A stretch of DNA of 64,000 nt from Reclinomonas americana ATCC 50394. Lineage: Eukaryota. A model generated the notes under the pieces. That model was not told the origin of the DNA, searched no databases, and saw nothing but the letters and a program-made list of their open reading frames with translations. The stretch's first letter is position 1. Each line of letters begins with the position of its first letter. This document shows positions 6,573 to 58,255 of the stretch, one piece after another. A program made the translations under genes and the position numbers. The stretch is taken from positions 23,090-87,089 of the forward strand of contig PS015054.1 of assembly GCA_048213135.1 (NCBI GenBank). The letters are read 5' to 3'.

Positions 6573-8502
6573 CTATCCGCCGCAACTCGGAACATAGCGC
6601 TTAAACAGCGCGAAAATCACGTCGTCCTCTGACGACTCCACGTGCGATTTCTCCTCCAGCGACAAGATCATATTCTTGCGCTTGATGAACAGCAGGAAGA
6701 TGTGGAAAAAGTTGCGTGCACGGTGCAGCTCCTTTCTCCTCTCCTCCTTGTCCAGTGACCATGAGGGTGGACGCACAATCACTGCCGTGTGTGAAAGGCA
6801 GTGAGTGTGGCGGAAGGGAAGAGGGAAGCGGAGGAGAAGGGGAGGAGAGGAGGAGAGGAGGAGGAGGATGACAGACAACCAAGGCCACGCAACGTGATGC
6901 AAAGCGCGTACTCAGTTCTCCAATTGTGCATCCATTGACCTGGTTGTGAAGCGACAAGCGCGCAAGGAATACACCTACGGCAACCACACCACGAGTCAAT
7001 ATGAAGACAACCGCCAGCGCATGCAGAGCAAACATGCTGCGTACCCAGATGCTTGAGACAGGCGCTGTGCATGCGCGGCAGACACATGAAGAAAAAGTCG
7101 TCCATTTGTTGCGAGATGCACCGAATGCTGAATGCGTACTGATTCACAAGCGTGGAGATTTGAATCGAGTCTGCGCCACCCAGCACGGAAGTGAGTATAG
7201 GCTCACAGCTTGCAGGCTCGAGTGTACGCAACCTGGTTTCAACGACATGGTCGGATGTCGCGTGCCGTACAGAATGGTGTCCACGATGCGTTCCAGCGAC
7301 GCGTCCTCCACCAAGTGTTGCACCTCTCGGTAGTGCTCGCTTCGCACGATTTGATTGGTGGCTGCGATGAGGTGAGATGAGGAGAAGAGGCTGACATGTG
7401 CGCTTGTGTATGCGACGGTGCCAGGAGAGAGCGAGCGCACAAGAACACGCAGTGCGATGGTGAGACGATACTGTATGTGCCTGTGGTTGCGTTGCACATC
7501 TCTCCTACTCTCTCCCTTGCTCCTATCATACTCGCACAATACGTTCTCTCACCTCTCTCACTCTCTTCCGTTCTCCTCTTCATACTCGCACACTACGCCC
7601 TCTCATCTCTCCCACTCCCTTCCGTTCTCCTCATCATATTCACACATTGCGCCCCCTCATCTCTTATATTCTCCTCATATACTCACACGTATTTGCTTCT
7701 TCTCATCTCTCCCACTCTCCTTTCCGGTCTCCTCATCTCTCCCACTCCCCCCATTTCTCGTCTTGACACTCACCACTCTCAATGTGCCGCTCCACCAAGT
7801 CAAGCGCGTCAAAGTACATGACGCTCGGAATCAGTGGCTCCGGCAGCTCACGCAGAAACATGGTCAACAGCGACCAGGCGCAGTCCACATCCATGACCGG
7901 CGCCTGGTACTGCCCCGAGTCAATGTACGACCGGCAGACGCGCAGCTGGTTAGAGTCCGGGCGCCGCCGGGGAAGATTGGGTGTGCGCACTCCGAACTCC
8001 AAAATGTACTCGCACAGCATCGACAGAATGTGCGGCACCTGGTTCTCGTCCGTGACCAAGCGCGGCAGTGGAACACCGAAGGTGCGGCGGAGGGTCGGTC
8101 GCACAGTCTGTGTGCGGAGAGTGAGACTCGTGGCGATCGAACCACGCACGGGAGGGAGGGAGGAGACGCAACTGTGAGGAACGAGGGAGGTGTGTCGGGG
8201 TCCGATTGTCCTGAGCCACCCAGCCGCCGTGGCGTTCCACCACGTTGCACGGGCGCTGCATTTTGGTCACCGCGCTCACTCAGTTTCCTCGAAAGGCAAA
8301 CAAACAAGCAGCAACGATGACCGAGAAAAGTGACGCAACAGGTGGCATTGTTTAGCGATACAGCAGGATCGTCCTCGCCGTGACCCTCGCAAATGGCCTG
8401 CACGGATGAATGTAAGAATGAGTGAGAGGCGAGAGGCAAGGCCTGAAACAGGATGGCGCACGATGTATGTGAACTGAGAGACNNNNNNNNNNNNNNNNNN
8501 NN

Positions 8503-14120: not shown

Positions 14121-14657
14121 ATCGCTCTGCCTCTCATTCTCGAGCGTGTCCACAGTGCGCTGCACGCGAATGCGATATTGCGAAATAAATCGATTTTTTG
14201 TGCGAGTGGTAACGTCCCACCACCGGCTGGTCGCCAAGAGCACTTGTACTGGTCGGCCATCATCACCAACATCCAACATCGCCCCTCCACACGTGCGCGA
14301 TGGGAGAAGTGCGTGTGCACAGTTTCTTGCATGTTCGTGTGCGCTCTGTTGCTTTCGCGCCAAAAGCAACCCTCTTGCGTCGACAGCAGACGCCGATCAC
14401 GACCGCTGCAGCGCACGACATCACTCACACACTGTGTGTGTGTGCACATGTGTGAGCCCCTTGCGCAAGAGGAGCCCATGATCAAACGATGAGAATCATC
14501 AGAGAGAGAGAGAGCACGAGACACACACACAGAGAGAGAGAGAGAGAGAGGAGGGAGGAGGAGGAGGAGGAGAGACGAGAGANNNNNNNNNNNNNNNNNN
14601 NNNNNNNNCTCTCTCTCTCTCTCCTCCTCCTCCTCCTCCTCCTCCTCTCTCCTCCTC

Positions 14658-17742: not shown

Positions 17743-17882
17743 NNNNNNNNNNNNNNNNNNNNNNNGGTCGGTCGGTACGTTCGTTCGTCGTAACGTACGG
17801 TACGGTCGGTCGGTAGTGTGTGTGTCGTCGGTCGCGTACGTGGTGTGTCGTCGGTCGTCGTCTACTACTCGTCGTCGTCGTC

Positions 17883-19554: not shown

Positions 19555-22500
19555 CTACAACGCATTTTGAAGGACTGCCATTTCGACATTCTGATCGCAC
19601 AGCGAATAGACGAGGACAGCCGTGGCCTTCTTGTCCAACGCGCTGCGCATCTTCTCCAACAGGGTGGTGATCCCTCGGCGCTCGCGCTCCACACGATTCG
19701 AGGCCCCGGCGGCTGCCGTATCCGGCATACTACTCAGTGCCACCACCACTTCACCCGCCGCACTGCACGAAAAAAGGAGGGAGGGAGGGAGCGTCAGCCA
19801 CCATCGCATGCAGAATTGACCTTCAACGACCCCACCTCTTCACATCGCCTGGTGGCTGCTTGCGGCGCATGCGATGGAAAGCGTCCACAGTCAGACGGAC
19901 TGTCCGCTGTGGCAGCTCGGTCTGCGCGATCAGTCAGCAACGTGTTGATCACTCTCTCTCCCTCCCTTCCCCTCTTCCTCTCTCTCTCTCTCTCAAGATA
20001 CTGTTCCCGCTTACCGCAGGCAATCCGCTCTGAAGCTCTGCATCTCTCTCGTTCACTCTCTTCTCTTCTCACTTCTTCCGATCTTCCTGCGTGTTCATCC
20101 CTTCTCCCTTGTCAGAGCGATCGCTATCGCACGTGCACGTGTGTGTTGTGAGAGTACCACCTTCACGGTTTCCACACGTTTATCGTGTTGATTTGCCCTC
20201 CTGTCTTGATCATCTTGACTCTCTCTCTCTCTCTCTGATTCTCNNNNNNNNNNNNNNNNNNNNNNNNNNNNNNNNNNNNNNNNNNNNNNNNNNNNNNNNN
20301 NNNNNNNNNNNNNNNNNNNNNNNNNNNNNNNNNNNNNNNNNNNNNNNNNNNNNNNNNNNNNNNNNNNNNNNNNNNNNNNNNNNNNNNNNNNNNNNNNNNN
20401 NNNNNNNNNNNNNNNNNNNNNNNNNNNNNNNNNNNNNNNNNNNNNNNNNNNNNNNNNNNNNNNNNNNNNNNNNNNNNNNNNNNNNNNNNNNNNNNNNNNN
20501 NNNNNNNNNNNNNNNNNNNNNNNNNNNNNNNNNNNNNNNNNNNNNNNNNNNNNNNNNNNNNNNNNNNNNNNNNNNNNNNNNNNNNNNNNNNNNNNNNNNN
20601 NNNNNNNNNNNNNNNNNNNNNNNNNNNNNNNNNNNNNNNNNNNNNNNNNNNNNNNNNNNNNNNNNNNNNNNNNNNNNNNNNNNNNNNNNNNNNNNNNNNN
20701 NNNNNNNNNNNNNNNNNNNNNNNNNNNNNNNNNNNNNNNNNNNNNNNNNNNNNNNNNNNNNNNNNNNNNNNNNNNNNNNNNNNNNNNNNNNNNNNNNNNN
20801 NNNNNNNNNNNNNNNNNNNNNNNNNNNNNNNNNNNNNNNNNNNNNNNNNNNNNNNNNNNNNNNNNNNNNNNNNNNNNNNNNNNNNNNNNNNNNNNNNNNN
20901 NNNNNNNNNNNNNNNNNNNNNNNNNNNNNNNNNNNNNNNNNNNNNNNNNNNNNNNNNNNNNNNNNNNNNNNNNNNNNNNNNNNNNNNNNNNNNNNNNNNN
21001 NNNNNNNNNNNNNNNNNNNNNNNNNNNNNNNNNNNNNNNNNNNNNNNNNNNNNNNNNNNNNNNNNNTCTCTCTCTCTTTCTGTCTGCTCTCTGCTCCCCC
21101 TCCTCCCTCCTCCCCCTCTCTCCCCCTTCTCTCCCCCTTCCCTTCCCCCTTTTCCCTCCCCTTCACTCACCACGACGATTTCCCGCAGCTTATCGAGCAC
21201 ACCCTCCACCGTGCGCTGCACACGCTCGCGAACCTTGCGGCGGCTCTTGGCCGCATGACCCGCCGTCTCCTTTTCTTCCTTCTCGCGCCGCGCACCCGAA
21301 CTGCCCGACGACGAGCCGACAACCTCCGTCACCGCCACACCGTCCAAGAACTGCACATCCAGACCACGCACGCGGAGTATGGCAGACAGGTCACCGCTGC
21401 CGGTGGGCAGGCCGGCCGAACTGCCGGAGGCGCCAACGCTGCCACTGGCACCCACATTGCCGCCACCACCCGTAGCACCACCCGCGGTGGGTCCCGAGGA
21501 GCCAATCTCCGCGTTGAAAAACGCCAGTACCTCCGATCGTGGCACCTTTTCGTCGCGCTTCTTCTGCGAGGCGGCGCTGCGAATGGTCACATGACCAACG
21601 GCGTGCTCGCGCAACAGCACCACCCACGGAATGCCAAGTCGCTTCGCCTCCTCCATTACGGTGTTTGGCTGCGAGAACGGCGTGTACTCGACAAACGCCT
21701 GTGATGCGACAGTGAGCCAACTTCTCTTCTTCCCTTCTCATCTCTGCTAATCTCTTCTCTTCCCTCTCCTCTCTCTTCCCTTCACTTCTCTTCCCATCTC
21801 TTTTGTCGCCTTCCCGTCTCTTCTATTCTTTTTCTCTTCCAGTCTCTCTTCGCTTCTCTTTTCCTCTCCTCTCCTCTCCTCTCCTCTCCCATCCCTTCTA
21901 GTGTTCTCTTCTCTTCTCTTTTCCCGTCCCTTCCTCTCCCTTCCCAAACCTTGTAGTTGGCCTTCCACAACTCGGCCGCCAGTTCCAGCATCTCCGGTAC
22001 CAACTGAGCGCCAATGCTGACAATCATGATATCGGAGCAGGTCGGTAGCCTCAACGGGCCCTTTGACTGCTGCACTCGTAAAGCACATGCACAAGTGAGA
22101 GACCTCGCGTACAATGAATGTGTTCTCCTCTCCTCTTCACTTCAATTCACTAAACTCTTCTCTTGTCTTCTCTTCCCCTTTTCTTCTTCTCAGCTTTTCT
22201 CCTCTCCTCATCTCTTCTCTTCTTCCCTCCCCTCCTCTTTCTTCTCTTTTATCTCCTCTTCCTCCTCTCCTCTCCTCTCTCTTCCCGTCTTCCTCCCCTC
22301 CCCCTCCCTTTCCCGATTCTAACCCTTCCCCTTTCTACCCCTTCTCCTTTCCTCACCGAGGTAACCGTGCTGTGCATAAACTGACAGATGTCGTCAATGT
22401 TGAACACCACCCCACAGGCCCCCAGTTCACGACCCGTCGCCGAGCCCGTTCCCTGTTGCGCCTGCTGCCGGTGCTTGTGATGCTGCGAGGACTGTTGTTG

Positions 22501-50657: not shown

Positions 50658-53364
<2,707 letters not shown>

Positions 53365-53385: not shown

Positions 53386-54537
53386 TCATGTTGCAACAAA
53401 CTCATTCATGTGCCGCGCCAGTGTCAGAACCTCTTGCGCCGTGTCGTGATCGAAATTGTGCCCGGAGCCTTCGATGACGTGCAGGGTGCAGTCGGGTATG
53501 ACGCGCGAGAAGTGCTCGGCGTCGGACAGCGGGATGACGCGATCGTGATCGCCGTGCAGCAACAGCACTCGCGACGACTGAATGTGCGCACCAATGTCGC
53601 CCATGTCGAGTGCCGCGCGCTGCTGCGCGAGTTCGCGAGTGACCAGACAGTCGCGGCCACGAGTGTGCCACACGAAGGAGCCTGTGGTCTCCAGTTGTTC
53701 CAGTTGCTCCGACGAGAAGCGCGACTTGAGGCCGCCACCTGCACACACACGATTGTTGAGGGGTGGGGCCCGGCCGGGAGACTCTATGTCTTCTGCTGGC
53801 GCAACTCATGTCGAAGCGAGCGCTGATGGAGATGACGCAAGGAGGAGGCGGCTCCTCTGCGTTGCCGGAAACGGCTGCCGCATACATGAGCACCACGTTG
53901 CCGCCCTGCGAGTGTCCGGCCACAGCCGCCACATGATGACCAGCGGCGCGCAAATGACGAATCTGCAAGCCCATCCATCACAGGTCGGCAAAGAGATGCA
54001 CACAGGCAGAAGAAGAGAGCATCGTGCGTGACGCACCACCGCCCGCAGATCGTCGACCTCGGCCACCAAGTTGCCCCACAACAGCGGTCCGTCCGACTCG
54101 CCATTGCCGGCAAAGTCAAAGGCGAATACAGGCGGTGACAAGTGCGGATACAGCTGCAGCGGATGGAGATGTCATGTGTCCATGTACGCAGACAGACGAA
54201 ATGCGCGAGAGATGAACACCTGTGGGTAACTGCACGCGGCGCAAGAGAGATGGTTGGTTGATCATGTGTGATCGGATGAATCATGCATGCATGCATGGAT
54301 CTCACGCAACAAATCGGACTCTTTCGTGCACATCATGCCATGGCAAAACACAATGACATCGTTTGTCTGCAGGCAAAGCACGCAGAGGGGCACTCCAATT
54401 CCGTGAGGTGTCGCATCTCATGCCGCACTTATGGCAAGTGGGAGGCAATCACCAACCTCCGCGTGCGGATTCGAATTCCACCAGGCACCACACAGGCGCC
54501 GCCGCTCATCAGTGATCCACTCGCGTTTCTCGCCCAT
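53386..54537 (-). CDS. Alpha/beta hydrolase (serine, GxSxG)
   Basis: VIVFCHGMM, FDFAGNGESDG, AEVDDLRAV, GHSQGG, LLLHGDHDRVIP, IEGSGHNF. Confidence 0.9.
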
Positions 54538-55059
54538 CGAATGTGCGCAGATTGCACAAGACTCGGAGGACGTCGCAATCATTTTCTGACCGTTAGAATT
54601 CGACCGGACGTTTCGATTGGGGATTTGTGGAATTTTGCGAGAGAAAGCGTGCGGTGAGAGGAAGTGCGAGAGAGAGAAGGATACGGCCGAACGCAGGGAC
54701 TGAGGAAACAAGAAACAAGAAAACAAGTCACGCCATAGCCTAGTGTGACACTCGACGACCATGGGGTGAGTGCAATCCAACCACGACGACGATGGCGATT
54801 GCCGACTTTGTGCTGACTGTGGTGCAGATGCGGAACGTCTTTGCATTCTGGCCTCCTGCCGCGTGGTGAGTGACTCTTCACCGACGCACACACACACACA
54901 CACACACACGTGCGACATGCACATGAAAGAAGAAGAAGAGTCGAGATACATGTTTGAAAAAGCCGTTTGATTGATTTCCACCAAGTTTGGCCGTTGACAC
55001 AATCACTTTCGCTCACTGTTCTGGGGGGTTTGATTCATGTCGCAGTGCCGACGGCCATC

Positions 55060-58000
55060 ATGAGTGAGGGCACGGATGTGTACTTTACGCAGCTGTCGTC
55101 GCAGTCGGGCTCGCCACTCGGCTTTTGCCACTTCAAAGTGTTGCGTTTTCTCCCCTGTATCGTCGTTTTCTCATTATGTGTGTGCGCCTTTTGAACTCAC
55201 CTTGCCTTGTGTGGCGGTTCCGAACAGGACTCGCCGTGGTGATGTGCATGTGGGTGCCACTCGTGTCGGTGTCGACCCTGCGTACTGGGAGAGCTTCCGT
55301 CATCGCGTCGAGCTGAAACCAGAGGTATGCAATGTGTTTATTTGTTCACTCACCGCATGTGTTGTTCACCATGTATGTTGCGTGCGTGTGCGTGTGTGTG
55401 CTCGTCTTGCAGTGGCAGAACATGCGCATGTCGGCCACCGTCTTCTTTTCCTCGATCAAAAAGGCATTTGAGGACAACAGTGCACGTGCCCAGGTGTGTT
55501 CGGGATCTCTCTCTCTCTCTCTGTTCTGCACCCTGCTCATCATGTGTACGCGGCAGGTGTCGCGCGACGAGAACATGCTCAACGTGATGGTGCCGATCGG
55601 CACCGGCAGCTTTGTGATGAGTCTGCGTCGCATCACCGACACTCCGCTGGCATACCGCGCCGCTGAGATCTTCTTCCAGGAGATGCTGAACTCGGTGCAA
55701 TCGATGCGCAAGCAAGTCGAGTCGAAGAAGCGTGAGTCGCTGCCTCTGTCTCTACTGCACGCATTCCTCCCTTCCCACCAGTCATCTCACGCTGACCACA
55801 GCTCGTGAGTCGGCTGCTGCCGATCGCGAGGTCAGCGCGGCGTTCTCGGAGAACCCGCTGACGCCGAACCAAAAGTCGACCCGGCCTCGTGTCGCCCCGA
55901 TTGACGACGACCCCGACGCACCAGTGCCGGTCAAGGTCAGCTCTCGGCCGCCAAACACACCGCTGTCGCCGTCAAGCAAGGCAAACCGCCGTGGATCTCG
56001 CGTTCTCTCGCCCACTCCCATTAGCAAGCTGTCGCCGACGGCATCGGTCAAGTCGGTGGACACGCAGCGCAGTCGCCGTGCGGCCGAGGACAAGGAGAAC
56101 AAGAGCTCGTCCAAGTCGTCGCGCAAGTATGCGCCGACGTTGCCGGCCGACGAAACGGAGCCGGCCAGCGGGGGCATGTCGCCGACCAAGGCGAGCTCGG
56201 AGAAGGGTCACGATGCGGGCGACGATGCGGCCTCGGATGACTCGGCCGACTCGGAGGAGCTGAGAATTCGTGCGTCGCGCGCCCGTTTCTCACCGCGGCG
56301 CATGTCGATGGCTCCGCCAAGGAGGCCCATTTCGGCGGCCGGTCCCGGCCCTGTGCAGTACAGAGCTCCTGGAGCGCTCATGCAGCGTTGCGTAGCCACC
56401 GCCCCGTTATCCACTTAACTATCCATGACAAGCGCCCTCTAACCGTCTTGCCCTGTTCCTCTCCCAACAGGTCGTGAAAGCAACGCTGTCACGCTGCCGG
56501 TGGACAAGGCCATTGGCATCCTCAACTATCTCAAGGCAGCTCTGATCTCGAGCGGTGAGTGAGGCGAGGTCAGGCACTATATCTTGCTTATTTCCTCACC
56601 ACCCCCATTGTCTGCGCGCACAGGCTTCCCCAAGGAGGACCAAGACAATGTGGAGTACGTCATTGGACTGTTCATCAGCAACGACTTTTACACCCCCGAG
56701 GCTCTGGACCCGGACTCTGCCTCACGTGCGTTTGCGCAACCAGAGATGGGGGGAAACCACGCAAAGAGAGTTCTCATCATGCCATTTGTTTACTGCAGAG
56801 GCGGAGACGGTGGAGGACAAGTGCGACACGCCGGCGGCGGTGCTGCGTGGTCACACGGACGACGAGATCACACAATTTGTGATGACCGAGCTCGTGCGCA
56901 AGGAGAGGAAGAAGACTGTGCGACAGGCCATGCGTGGCATGTTTGGTGCCTTCCGCTTCGCGTTGCGTCACCAACAGTCATCTTTTTTTGCAGTCGACTG
57001 GAGAGCTCACCCTTCCTCACACACACACACACACAACAGGCAAGCACTGAAGAAGAAGATGCAGACTATGCTGCTCGCAACCATTAATCCGGGCTCTCCC
57101 GAGGCCATGCTGCCGATCCTGAGCGGCATTAGTCACTGGGACTTTGACGTCTTCCAACTCTCCAACATGACCGGTCGACCACTGTACTACACCGGCATCT
57201 CGATATTCTACAAGTACAACTTGATCAAGAAGCTGCAGCTGGACGAGGAGCGCGTGAAGGCGTTCCTGACCGAGGTCGAGAAATCGTACCGCCCCAATCC
57301 CTACCACAACAACATCCACGCCGCAGATGTCACCCAAACGCTCTTCTACTTTATCCAGGCGGGAGGCTTTGATCTGTTGCGTCCTTGCGTCGTTGTCACT
57401 TGAAGCAAAGATAGTAGTATCTGACCGCAACAAACAAATCGCAGCTACTTGGACGACATTGACTTGTTCGCGGCGGTGTTTGCGGCTCTGATTCACGACG
57501 TGGACCACCCGGGTCTCAACAACATCTTCATGGTCAAGACCGAGTCTTTCGAGGCCATGACCTACAACGATCAGGCCGTGCTGGAGAATCACCACCTGAA
57601 GTTCGCCTTCCAGTTGCTCTACAACAGCGACTTCAACTTTGTCGGACACTTGCCACCTGAGAAGTTGAGCTGCGGCTGGTTGATCACCACCGCCATTGTC
57701 GCTGTCCATACTCACCCGTCACCGCACACAGGCGTCGCCAATTCCGCGACACTGTCATTCAAATGGTGCTCGCCACCGACATGGGCAAGCATCTGGAGTT
57801 TGTCGGCAAGTTCCAGAGCCGTTTGATGAAGAAGGGTGCGTGTGCATGTGTGCGCTGGTTGTTCTCTGCAGCAATGGATCTGATGACGTGCGCGCCACAC
57901 AGAGTTCGATCACAACGATCGCCAAGATATAATATTGCTGCTTCAGGTACTGCTCAAGTGCGCCGATGTCAGTAACCCGGCCAAGCCCATCGACATTTAC

Positions 58001-58255
58001 AAGTTGTGGGCCGACCGCGTGACGGAAGAGTTTTACCAGCAGGGCGATCGGGAGCGACAGCTCGCGCTCCCCGTGTCGCCGTTCATGGATCGCATGAAGC
58101 CATCGAAGGCCAAGTGCCAGATTGGCTTCATCGACTTCTTGACGCAGCCGCTGTACGACAATCTGGCCAGCTTTGTGCCAGCTCTGACACACACGGTCAA
58201 CATGATGAAGGACAATCGCCGCTACTGGGCGGGCCTCATGCCGCCCCCAGCGTGA
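55060..58255 (+). CDS. Class I 3',5'-cyclic nucleotide phosphodiesterase with unusual N-terminal domain
   Basis: WDFDVF, NPYHNNIHAADV, ALIHDVDHPGLNN, YNDQAVLENHH, VLATDM, LKCADVSNP, EEFYQQGDRE, QIGFIDF. Exon phases are consistent from ATG 55060 to the stop. Confidence 0.93.

Follow-up and report, generated by a model that had tools for sequence, protein, structure and literature searches.

The window analysed here is a 64,000-nucleotide stretch of contig PS015054.1 from Reclinomonas americana ATCC 50394 (assembly GCA_048213135.1, positions 23,090 to 87,089), and all coordinates below count from its first letter. On its forward strand, at 55060-58255, it carries the gene of a class I cyclic-nucleotide phosphodiesterase (PDE) with intact catalytic motifs, in front of which stands an N-terminal domain that probably adopts the head fold of the XRCC4 superfamily. 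The spliced coding sequence comprises 12 exons and 792 codons and ends in its one terminal stop (58253-58255). An earlier note, made from the sequence alone, had proposed that four exons at 55060-55735 encode such a head with a coiled coil, and that they splice in frame through a Ser/Pro linker and a helical segment into the catalytic domain. Joined by their coordinates, the four exons give the 144-residue peptide of that note letter for letter, and the in-frame path from linker through helical segment to catalytic domain is borne out by the single 792-codon coding sequence. The exons therefore stand as given; the end point does not, as exon 4 stops at 55731 and position 55735 lies four bases into intron 4.

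Support for a single gene comes from comparison with relatives. A search with the last exon recovered 40 PDEs among 112 candidates, none of them identical to the window protein. The nearest, P0002 (866 residues, with 63% identity over the last exon), is encoded by one uninterrupted open reading frame (ORF) on a 3123-nt contig, and its 99%-identical copy, P0041, by a single ORF on a 3203-nt contig from a second assembly. The 12-exon model is collinear with P0002 from head to catalytic domain (model residues 7-785, E-value 4e-176; 60% identity over 321 aligned residues in the catalytic domain), and at least nine of the 11 exon junctions fall in ungapped stretches of the alignment, including all three inside the front domain, the exon 5/6 junction and the intron 3 junction. 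Because these two single-ORF relatives are collinear with the model, the exons at 55060-58255 can be read as one PDE gene, in agreement with the earlier proposal. Its exons are listed here with their contents and, for the front domain, with the corresponding elements of a predicted structure of P0002 residues 1-145:

55060-55139, + strand: exon 1, with the start codon chosen in the earlier note and the first predicted head strands; matches P0002 residues 1-20
55228-55324, + strand: exon 2, with the conserved G-D-[VI]-x-[VL]-G-A beta hairpin, an aromatic-Trp-Glu motif and the first helix of a predicted helix-turn-helix (P0002 model: strands 17-24 and 27-34, helix 47-56)
55413-55493, + strand: exon 3, the second helix of the predicted helix-turn-helix (P0002 model: helix 62-75)
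55557-55731, + strand: exon 4, the last three predicted head strands and a stalk helix of about 28 residues, at residues ~117-144 of the gene model (P0002 model: strands 79-82, 88-94 and 97-105, helix 109-126)
55802-56386, + strand: exon 5, a linker of low complexity, 195 residues long
56471-56554, + strand: exon 6, part of the pre-catalytic helical pair, with exon 7
56624-56725, + strand: exon 7, part of the pre-catalytic helical pair, with exon 6
56799-56961, + strand: exon 8, which precedes the catalytic domain; its end, F-R-F-A, aligns ungapped with P0002
57040-57375, + strand: exon 9, class I PDE catalytic domain
57445-57663, + strand: exon 10, class I PDE catalytic domain
57732-57835, + strand: exon 11, class I PDE catalytic domain
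57903-58255, + strand: exon 12, class I PDE catalytic domain, including the stop

All 11 introns run from GT to AG, measure 63-88 nt and end in a CAG acceptor. Five donors, at 55140, 56387, 56962, 57376 and 57664, read GTTGCGT (four) or GTTGAGC (one) and follow exons ending in T, C or A; exon 1, for example, ends in T before its GTTGCG donor, and the donor of exon 5 is GTTGCG too. The base preceding the six ordinary donors is G in four cases and C in two. Intron 3, at 63 nt, keeps the reading frame and contains no stop; it is taken to be a true intron because P0002 has no residues at that site.

The catalytic half of the protein is readily recognised. Pfam PDEase_I (PF00233) matches exons 9, 10, 11 and 12 in profile order, at positions 1-22, 26-96, 100-131 and 141-236 of 238, with 21.8 bits for exon 9 (profile positions 1-22 only), 86.7 for exon 10, 30.9 for exon 11 and 112.5 for exon 12, the curated cut-off being 24.8 bits. 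In this the window protein resembles other class I PDEs: the profile is complete across the four exons, and the metal-binding and glutamine-switch motifs are intact. All six catalytic motifs (YHNNIHAADV, HDVDHPG, LENHH, TDM, ADVSN and KCQIGF) occur, each once, in the spliced model, and we take them to supply the metal contacts (His/Asp) and the substrate contacts (the invariant glutamine). Judged by these residues the enzyme looks active, and it is probably directed at cyclic AMP (cAMP). When residues 507-817 of P0002 were searched against PDB sequences, PDE4C was the best match (E 1.2e-70), with PDE4D at about 1e-70, followed by PDE8A (2e-64), PDE9A, PDE1B and PDE7A. Exon 8 returned only sub-threshold noise in a Pfam search.

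Ahead of the catalytic domain, exons 6 and 7 encode a predicted pair of helices with the pattern P-V-[DE]-[KR]-x-[LI] ... [DN]-x-[LF]-Y. Among 41 PDE relatives, 14 further proteins match a profile built from two sequences of this segment at E <= 1, and eight of these do so at E < 0.05. Carriers of the pair include P0009, P0014, P0024, P0025, P0028, P0029 and P0034, and comprise protist PDEs fused to ion-transport (PF00520) domains as well as short PDEs whose start lies some 20 residues ahead of it. From this distribution, the helical pair appears as a feature common to this PDE clade, possibly one with a regulatory or dimerising role specific to the clade. In class I PDEs of solved structure it lies outside all constructs, which sets the window protein and its protist relatives, channel-fused ones included, apart from them. 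A further difference from known class I PDEs lies at the N-terminus, where the module of the window protein corresponds to no known PDE regulatory domain and has no Pfam match.

That module is nevertheless conserved. Residues 7-131 of the model align with P0002 residues 1-125 at 27% identity over 127 residues (E 5e-11), the only significant match to the front domain among the 40 PDE relatives, the other 39 standing at E >= 0.48; in a shuffle test, none of 2000 shuffled sequences reached the observed local score (122 vs 26 ± 4; z 22). No predicted element is without conserved positions, which include two hairpins, G-D-[VI]-x-[VL]-G-A and P-[IV]-G, as well as the aromatic-Trp-Glu motif, the second helix and the beginning of the stalk helix; exon 4 is the best conserved block of the domain. 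By these alignments, the front domains of the window protein and P0002 are homologous, in two distant PDEs. Wider searches found no further carrier: exon 4 against 5.8 billion proteins, restricted to longer ones, gave five word candidates and none at E <= 0.01; exon 3, intron 3 and exon 4 read through as one peptide gave no phmmer match at E <= 0.001 among 1.84 billion representatives; P0002 residues 1-135, searched against proteins of 476-1516 residues (shorter free-standing forms being outside that range), retrieved only P0002 itself from 429 candidates at E <= 10; and JGI metagenome contigs held 495 pattern matches to P0002 1-145 and 282 to window exon 4, none of which was confirmed by tblastn. 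Against Pfam, P0002 as a whole has PDEase_I as its only match at E <= 1.

It is predicted structure that points to a family. AlphaFold2 folds P0002 residues 1-145 into strands at 2-4, 17-24 and 27-34, helices at 47-56 and 62-75, strands at 79-82, 88-94 and 97-105, and a last helix at 109-126. In a Foldseek search of the PDB with this model, the ten best rows all belong to PAXX, CCDC61 or XRCC4 or are chains from end-joining complexes, at E 0.03-0.16. VIA-align, which is independent of Foldseek, compared the model with 48,161 PDB chains, and the best 18 of these are PAXX, CCDC61, XRCC4, SAS-6, XLF or chains of complexes holding them, with matches that span 87-121 residues of the domain of about 130. 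Representative matches, with their VIA-align scores, are:

3wtd_A, PAXX: 8.1, root-mean-square deviation 3.6 Å, 109 aligned (of 127 residues)
6hxt_A, CCDC61 head: 7.9, root-mean-square deviation 2.8 Å, 87 aligned
9cq3_G, end-joining complex chain: 7.8
8p26_A, plant PAXX: 7.3
5wlz_C, XRCC4 fusion: 6.3
2qm4_A, XLF: 5.8

The ESM Atlas leads to the same place by another route. Its feature neighbours of the P0002 domain are clusters of XRCC4, XLF, SAS-6_N and CCDC61_N, at 0.77-0.85, and its structure neighbours, obtained with its own model, include PAXX (TM-score 0.73), CCDC61_N (0.68) and two clusters of hypothetical plant proteins (0.80-0.82). PAXX (PDB 3wtd, 4wja and 8p26) is the top structural match in Foldseek, in VIA-align and in the ESM Atlas structure search. 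As a control, an equally poor model of another protein, the tandem PDE P0003 described below, gave no row of XRCC4-like families among 50, which indicates that poor models do not match these families by default.

The superfamily in question consists of XRCC4, XLF, PAXX, SAS-6 and CCDC61/VFL3 and, in the available part of its description by Ochi et al. (2020; PMC7267773), is characterised by the order head, helix, low-complexity region and by a PISA motif common to its heads. The roles described in that part are DNA end joining and the assembly of centrioles or basal bodies, and the characterised members are all scaffolds, which self-associate through the stalk and, PAXX excepted, through the heads (PMC7267773). 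The window protein, with its probable head and predicted helix, follows the same order of head, helix and low-complexity region as is given there (PMC7267773), the last being supplied by the 195 residues of exon 5. It differs in what comes next: an enzyme stands behind the low-complexity region, and the available part of that source describes the five named members only as scaffolds (PMC7267773). It differs too in its stalk, for which the coiled coil of the earlier note says too much: only a single amphipathic helix is predicted, which in the window protein covers about 28 residues, has hydrophobic residues three to four apart and is ended by Pro145, and which in the P0002 model covers about 18 (109-126). 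This single helix of some 18-28 residues is not a long coiled coil, and the stalks of XRCC4 and SAS-6, the ligase-binding stalk of XRCC4 in particular, are far longer. Within the superfamily, it is PAXX whose stalk is comparatively short. SAS-6 and CCDC61 form head-to-head dimers through a conserved Phe held in a hydrophobic pocket and thereby build protofilaments or rings; the factors of non-homologous end joining carry motifs for their partners, such as a Ku-binding tail and a ligase IV binding site on the stalk. The exon 5 linker itself is rich in Ser (16%), Pro (13%), Ala (13%) and Arg (11%), holds eight Ser/Thr-Pro sites and matches no Pfam family.

A number of points weigh against assigning the front domain to this superfamily, or against what such an assignment would imply for the PDE. 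The fold tests concern P0002 residues 1-145 in place of the window's own spliced sequence, and the alignment given to AlphaFold2 held two pieces of the window protein as its sole other rows, with 13 residues misaligned. Confidence in the resulting model is low: the mean predicted local distance difference test score (pLDDT) is 49.7, no residue exceeds 70, and the other four models reach 38-40. DSSP assigns it six strands, not seven. Foldseek returned no match at E <= 0.001 in the PDB, and its TM-scores lie between 0.23 and 0.42. The ESM Atlas feature scores all stay below 0.9, a range that the tool itself treats as no more than a lead, and ten matches of one clan are obtained there even by a third of shuffled proteins. 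At the level of sequence, the Pfam models XRCC4, XLF, PAXX, SAS-6_N and CCDC61_N gave no match at E <= 10 to P0002 1-145 or to the two window pieces, nor did any other Pfam family, by which test the front domain belongs to none of these five families, and a profile search of PDB sequences with the front domain gave noise only (a Dicer stretch at E 0.087 and an antibody chain at E 0.38). Two lineages, going by the searches above, are so far known to carry the domain. The shortness of the stalk helix weakens the case for a coiled-coil dimer, and 195 disordered residues of linker offer no hint as to how the head would affect catalysis. A homodimer prediction for two copies of P0002 1-145, made with the alignment unused and no controls, scored 0.01 against a mark of 0.32, and speaks neither for nor against dimerisation.

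Silence in sequence searches is to be expected here, because known superfamily heads share less than 20% identity, according to the part of Ochi et al. available (PMC7267773). Each line of the fold evidence is weak by the standards of its own tool, yet the lines agree and come from two predictors, so that the evidence is moderate overall. On these models, an XRCC4-superfamily head is the probable fold of the front domain. The identification made in the earlier note is in this sense upheld in part: the order of elements, VIA-align and the ESM Atlas, all for the P0002 domain, point to an XRCC4-like head, and the low pLDDT and the lack of a significant Foldseek or Pfam match hold the claim back.

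The reading preferred here, to which we give a rough probability of 0.6, is that the gene encodes a 792-residue, intact class I PDE whose XRCC4-like N-terminal head-stalk serves self-association, docking or both. The first 145 residues or so would make up a head, built as a beta-barrel into which a helix-turn-helix is inserted, and behind it the short stalk helix; from there a linker of some 195 disordered residues, rich in Ser and Pro and probably phosphorylated at its eight Ser/Thr-Pro sites, would lead to the pre-catalytic helical pair and on to the catalytic domain. The head-stalk would make the PDE self-associate, as a dimer through the stalk and possibly in larger numbers through the heads; as an alternative or added role, it may dock the PDE to a partner that stays in place. 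Thanks to the flexible linker, the catalytic domain would then be able to remove cyclic nucleotide from a local zone. Self-association and docking are proposed, as the most likely functions, because all characterised members of the superfamily are scaffolds.

Three other accounts of the locus have to be set against this one. Were intron 5 left unspliced, exons 1-5 would run on into a free-standing protein of about 350 residues, and the PDE would be a separate gene downstream; the exon 5 frame does meet a stop at 56416-56418, 30 bases beyond the proposed donor, and a head, a helix and a low-complexity tail on their own would make up the canonical build of the superfamily. Such a division into two genes is very improbable all the same, given that P0002 and P0041 hold head, linker and PDE in one uninterrupted ORF and that no gap interrupts the alignment across the exon 5/6 junction. 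The donor of intron 5, GTTGCGT, recurs at three other introns of the same gene. A separate PDE gene, moreover, would lack a start: the conserved exons 6 and 7 offer no in-frame ATG, and upstream of exon 6 the frame is closed. A different doubt concerns the fold alone: the front domain could be a real conserved domain of this PDE lineage with some other alpha/beta fold, its XRCC4-like matches being artefacts that arise because the models are of low confidence and the strand-helix-helix-strand-helix pattern is a common one. This we regard as unlikely, though by no means negligible, since AlphaFold2 and the ESM Atlas's own ESM model, two predictors, arrive at the same superfamily, since the best 18 of 48,161 chains, with matches covering 87-121 residues of the domain, belong to that one superfamily or its complexes, and since another poor model, that of P0003, produced no such rows.

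The remaining account accepts the XRCC4-like module and gives it another task, that of an intramolecular regulatory domain gating the catalytic site, in the manner of UCR, GAF and PAS domains in animal PDEs. Animal class I PDEs have N-terminal regulatory domains, which also dimerise them, and in the window protein the conserved pre-catalytic pair could relay a signal, with the eight Ser/Thr-Pro sites of the linker as a further point in favour. Against gating in cis stand the roughly 195 low-complexity residues between the head and the remainder, the presence of the pre-catalytic pair in relatives that have no head (channel-fused PDEs and short PDEs), and the fact that no XRCC4-superfamily head is known to regulate an enzyme in cis. 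Because the linker is long and the pre-catalytic helices occur in head-less relatives, this account is the less likely one and in our estimate quite improbable. Self-association or docking by the head-stalk is the reading retained.

A bolder extension of it, which we consider speculative and on balance unlikely, is that, in addition to DNA repair and centriole building, the superfamily has a third functional branch, in which XRCC4-like heads serve as self-assembling anchors for signalling enzymes. The head-stalk would here assemble the PDE into dimers or protofilaments at the basal body, the flagellar base or a membrane patch, where the PDE would be a standing sink shaping cAMP microdomains, and a candidate Met-Gly-Cys acylation start would aid attachment to the membrane. 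That start depends on two possible exons upstream of the gene model:

54761-54765, + strand: candidate micro-exon A, ATGGG followed by a GTGAGT donor, with the start codon in a gaccATGG context
54828-54865, + strand: candidate mini-exon B, 38 nt, with a CAG acceptor and a GTGAGT donor

Spliced to an acceptor at 55045/55046, which would extend exon 1 to begin at 55046, A and B would keep the reading frame of the ATG at 55060, and the two introns so removed would measure 62 and 180 nt. The candidate extension has 19 residues, and its Met-Gly-Cys start with Ser at position 6 is a pattern of dual acylation (myristoylation and palmitoylation). P0002 starts at the first head strand and has no such extension, which counts either against the micro-exons or for a difference between lineages. 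On the sequence features given, it is somewhat doubtful that A and B are real coding exons.

On the bolder reading, the same build may recur in several protist lineages: that of the window genome, that of the P0002 organism and perhaps that of P0003. P0003 (a EukProt Trinity record of 1291 residues) is a tandem PDE with two catalytic domains, and it likewise begins with Met-Gly-Cys. By eye, a strand/helix module and a coiled-coil-like stretch precede each of its catalytic domains, at about 85-330 and 680-900. The ESM Atlas features of residues 85-250 lead to XRCC4/XLF clusters at 0.78-0.79, as a lead only, and AlphaFold2 gives residues 81-260 four strands, two helices, three strands and a long helix, which is the canonical order, but at a pLDDT of 41.6; the structure search with this model is the one that returned no XRCC4-like row among 50. 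Neither hhalign, hmmsearch nor blastp found a sequence link between P0003 and the head of the window protein or P0002. P0003 may be a doubled version of the head-stalk-PDE build.

Around the gene, an ORF on the minus strand at about 53386-54330 resembles, by eye, the C-terminal part of an alpha/beta hydrolase, and since it lies on the opposite strand the PDE gene seems to share with it a divergent promoter region at about 54330-54760. Downstream, from 58577 on the plus strand, there is a small intron-split gene with paired cysteines, CHCH/Cx9C-like by eye. Runs of (CA)n/(TG)n and of (CT)n are frequent near the locus, in introns and between genes. Assembly gaps, present as runs of N, lie at 1385-1741, 8483-8502, 14583-14608, 17743-17765, 20244-21066 and 52390-52729, and a long (TG)n repeat leads into the last of these.

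A literature search, judged by the titles listed, found no paper that links a cyclic-nucleotide PDE to an XRCC4-like or SAS-6 head fold, and this fits the remark in the earlier note that no class I PDE with this domain was known to it. Subjects among those titles were end joining, malaria (in reviews), and SAS6L and conoids. The novelty lies in the N-terminal module of this class I PDE; probably new as well is an XRCC4-superfamily head joined to an enzyme, an arrangement undescribed for any member in the available part of PMC7267773. With moderate evidence for the fold and two known carrier lineages, the finding should be taken as a good lead and not yet as a result. If it is true, the presence of a superfamily member on an active enzyme would widen the known uses of this fold, and protist cyclic-nucleotide signalling would gain a new module for the targeting or oligomerisation of PDEs, unlike the GAF, PAS, UCR and REC domains of those PDEs that have been studied.

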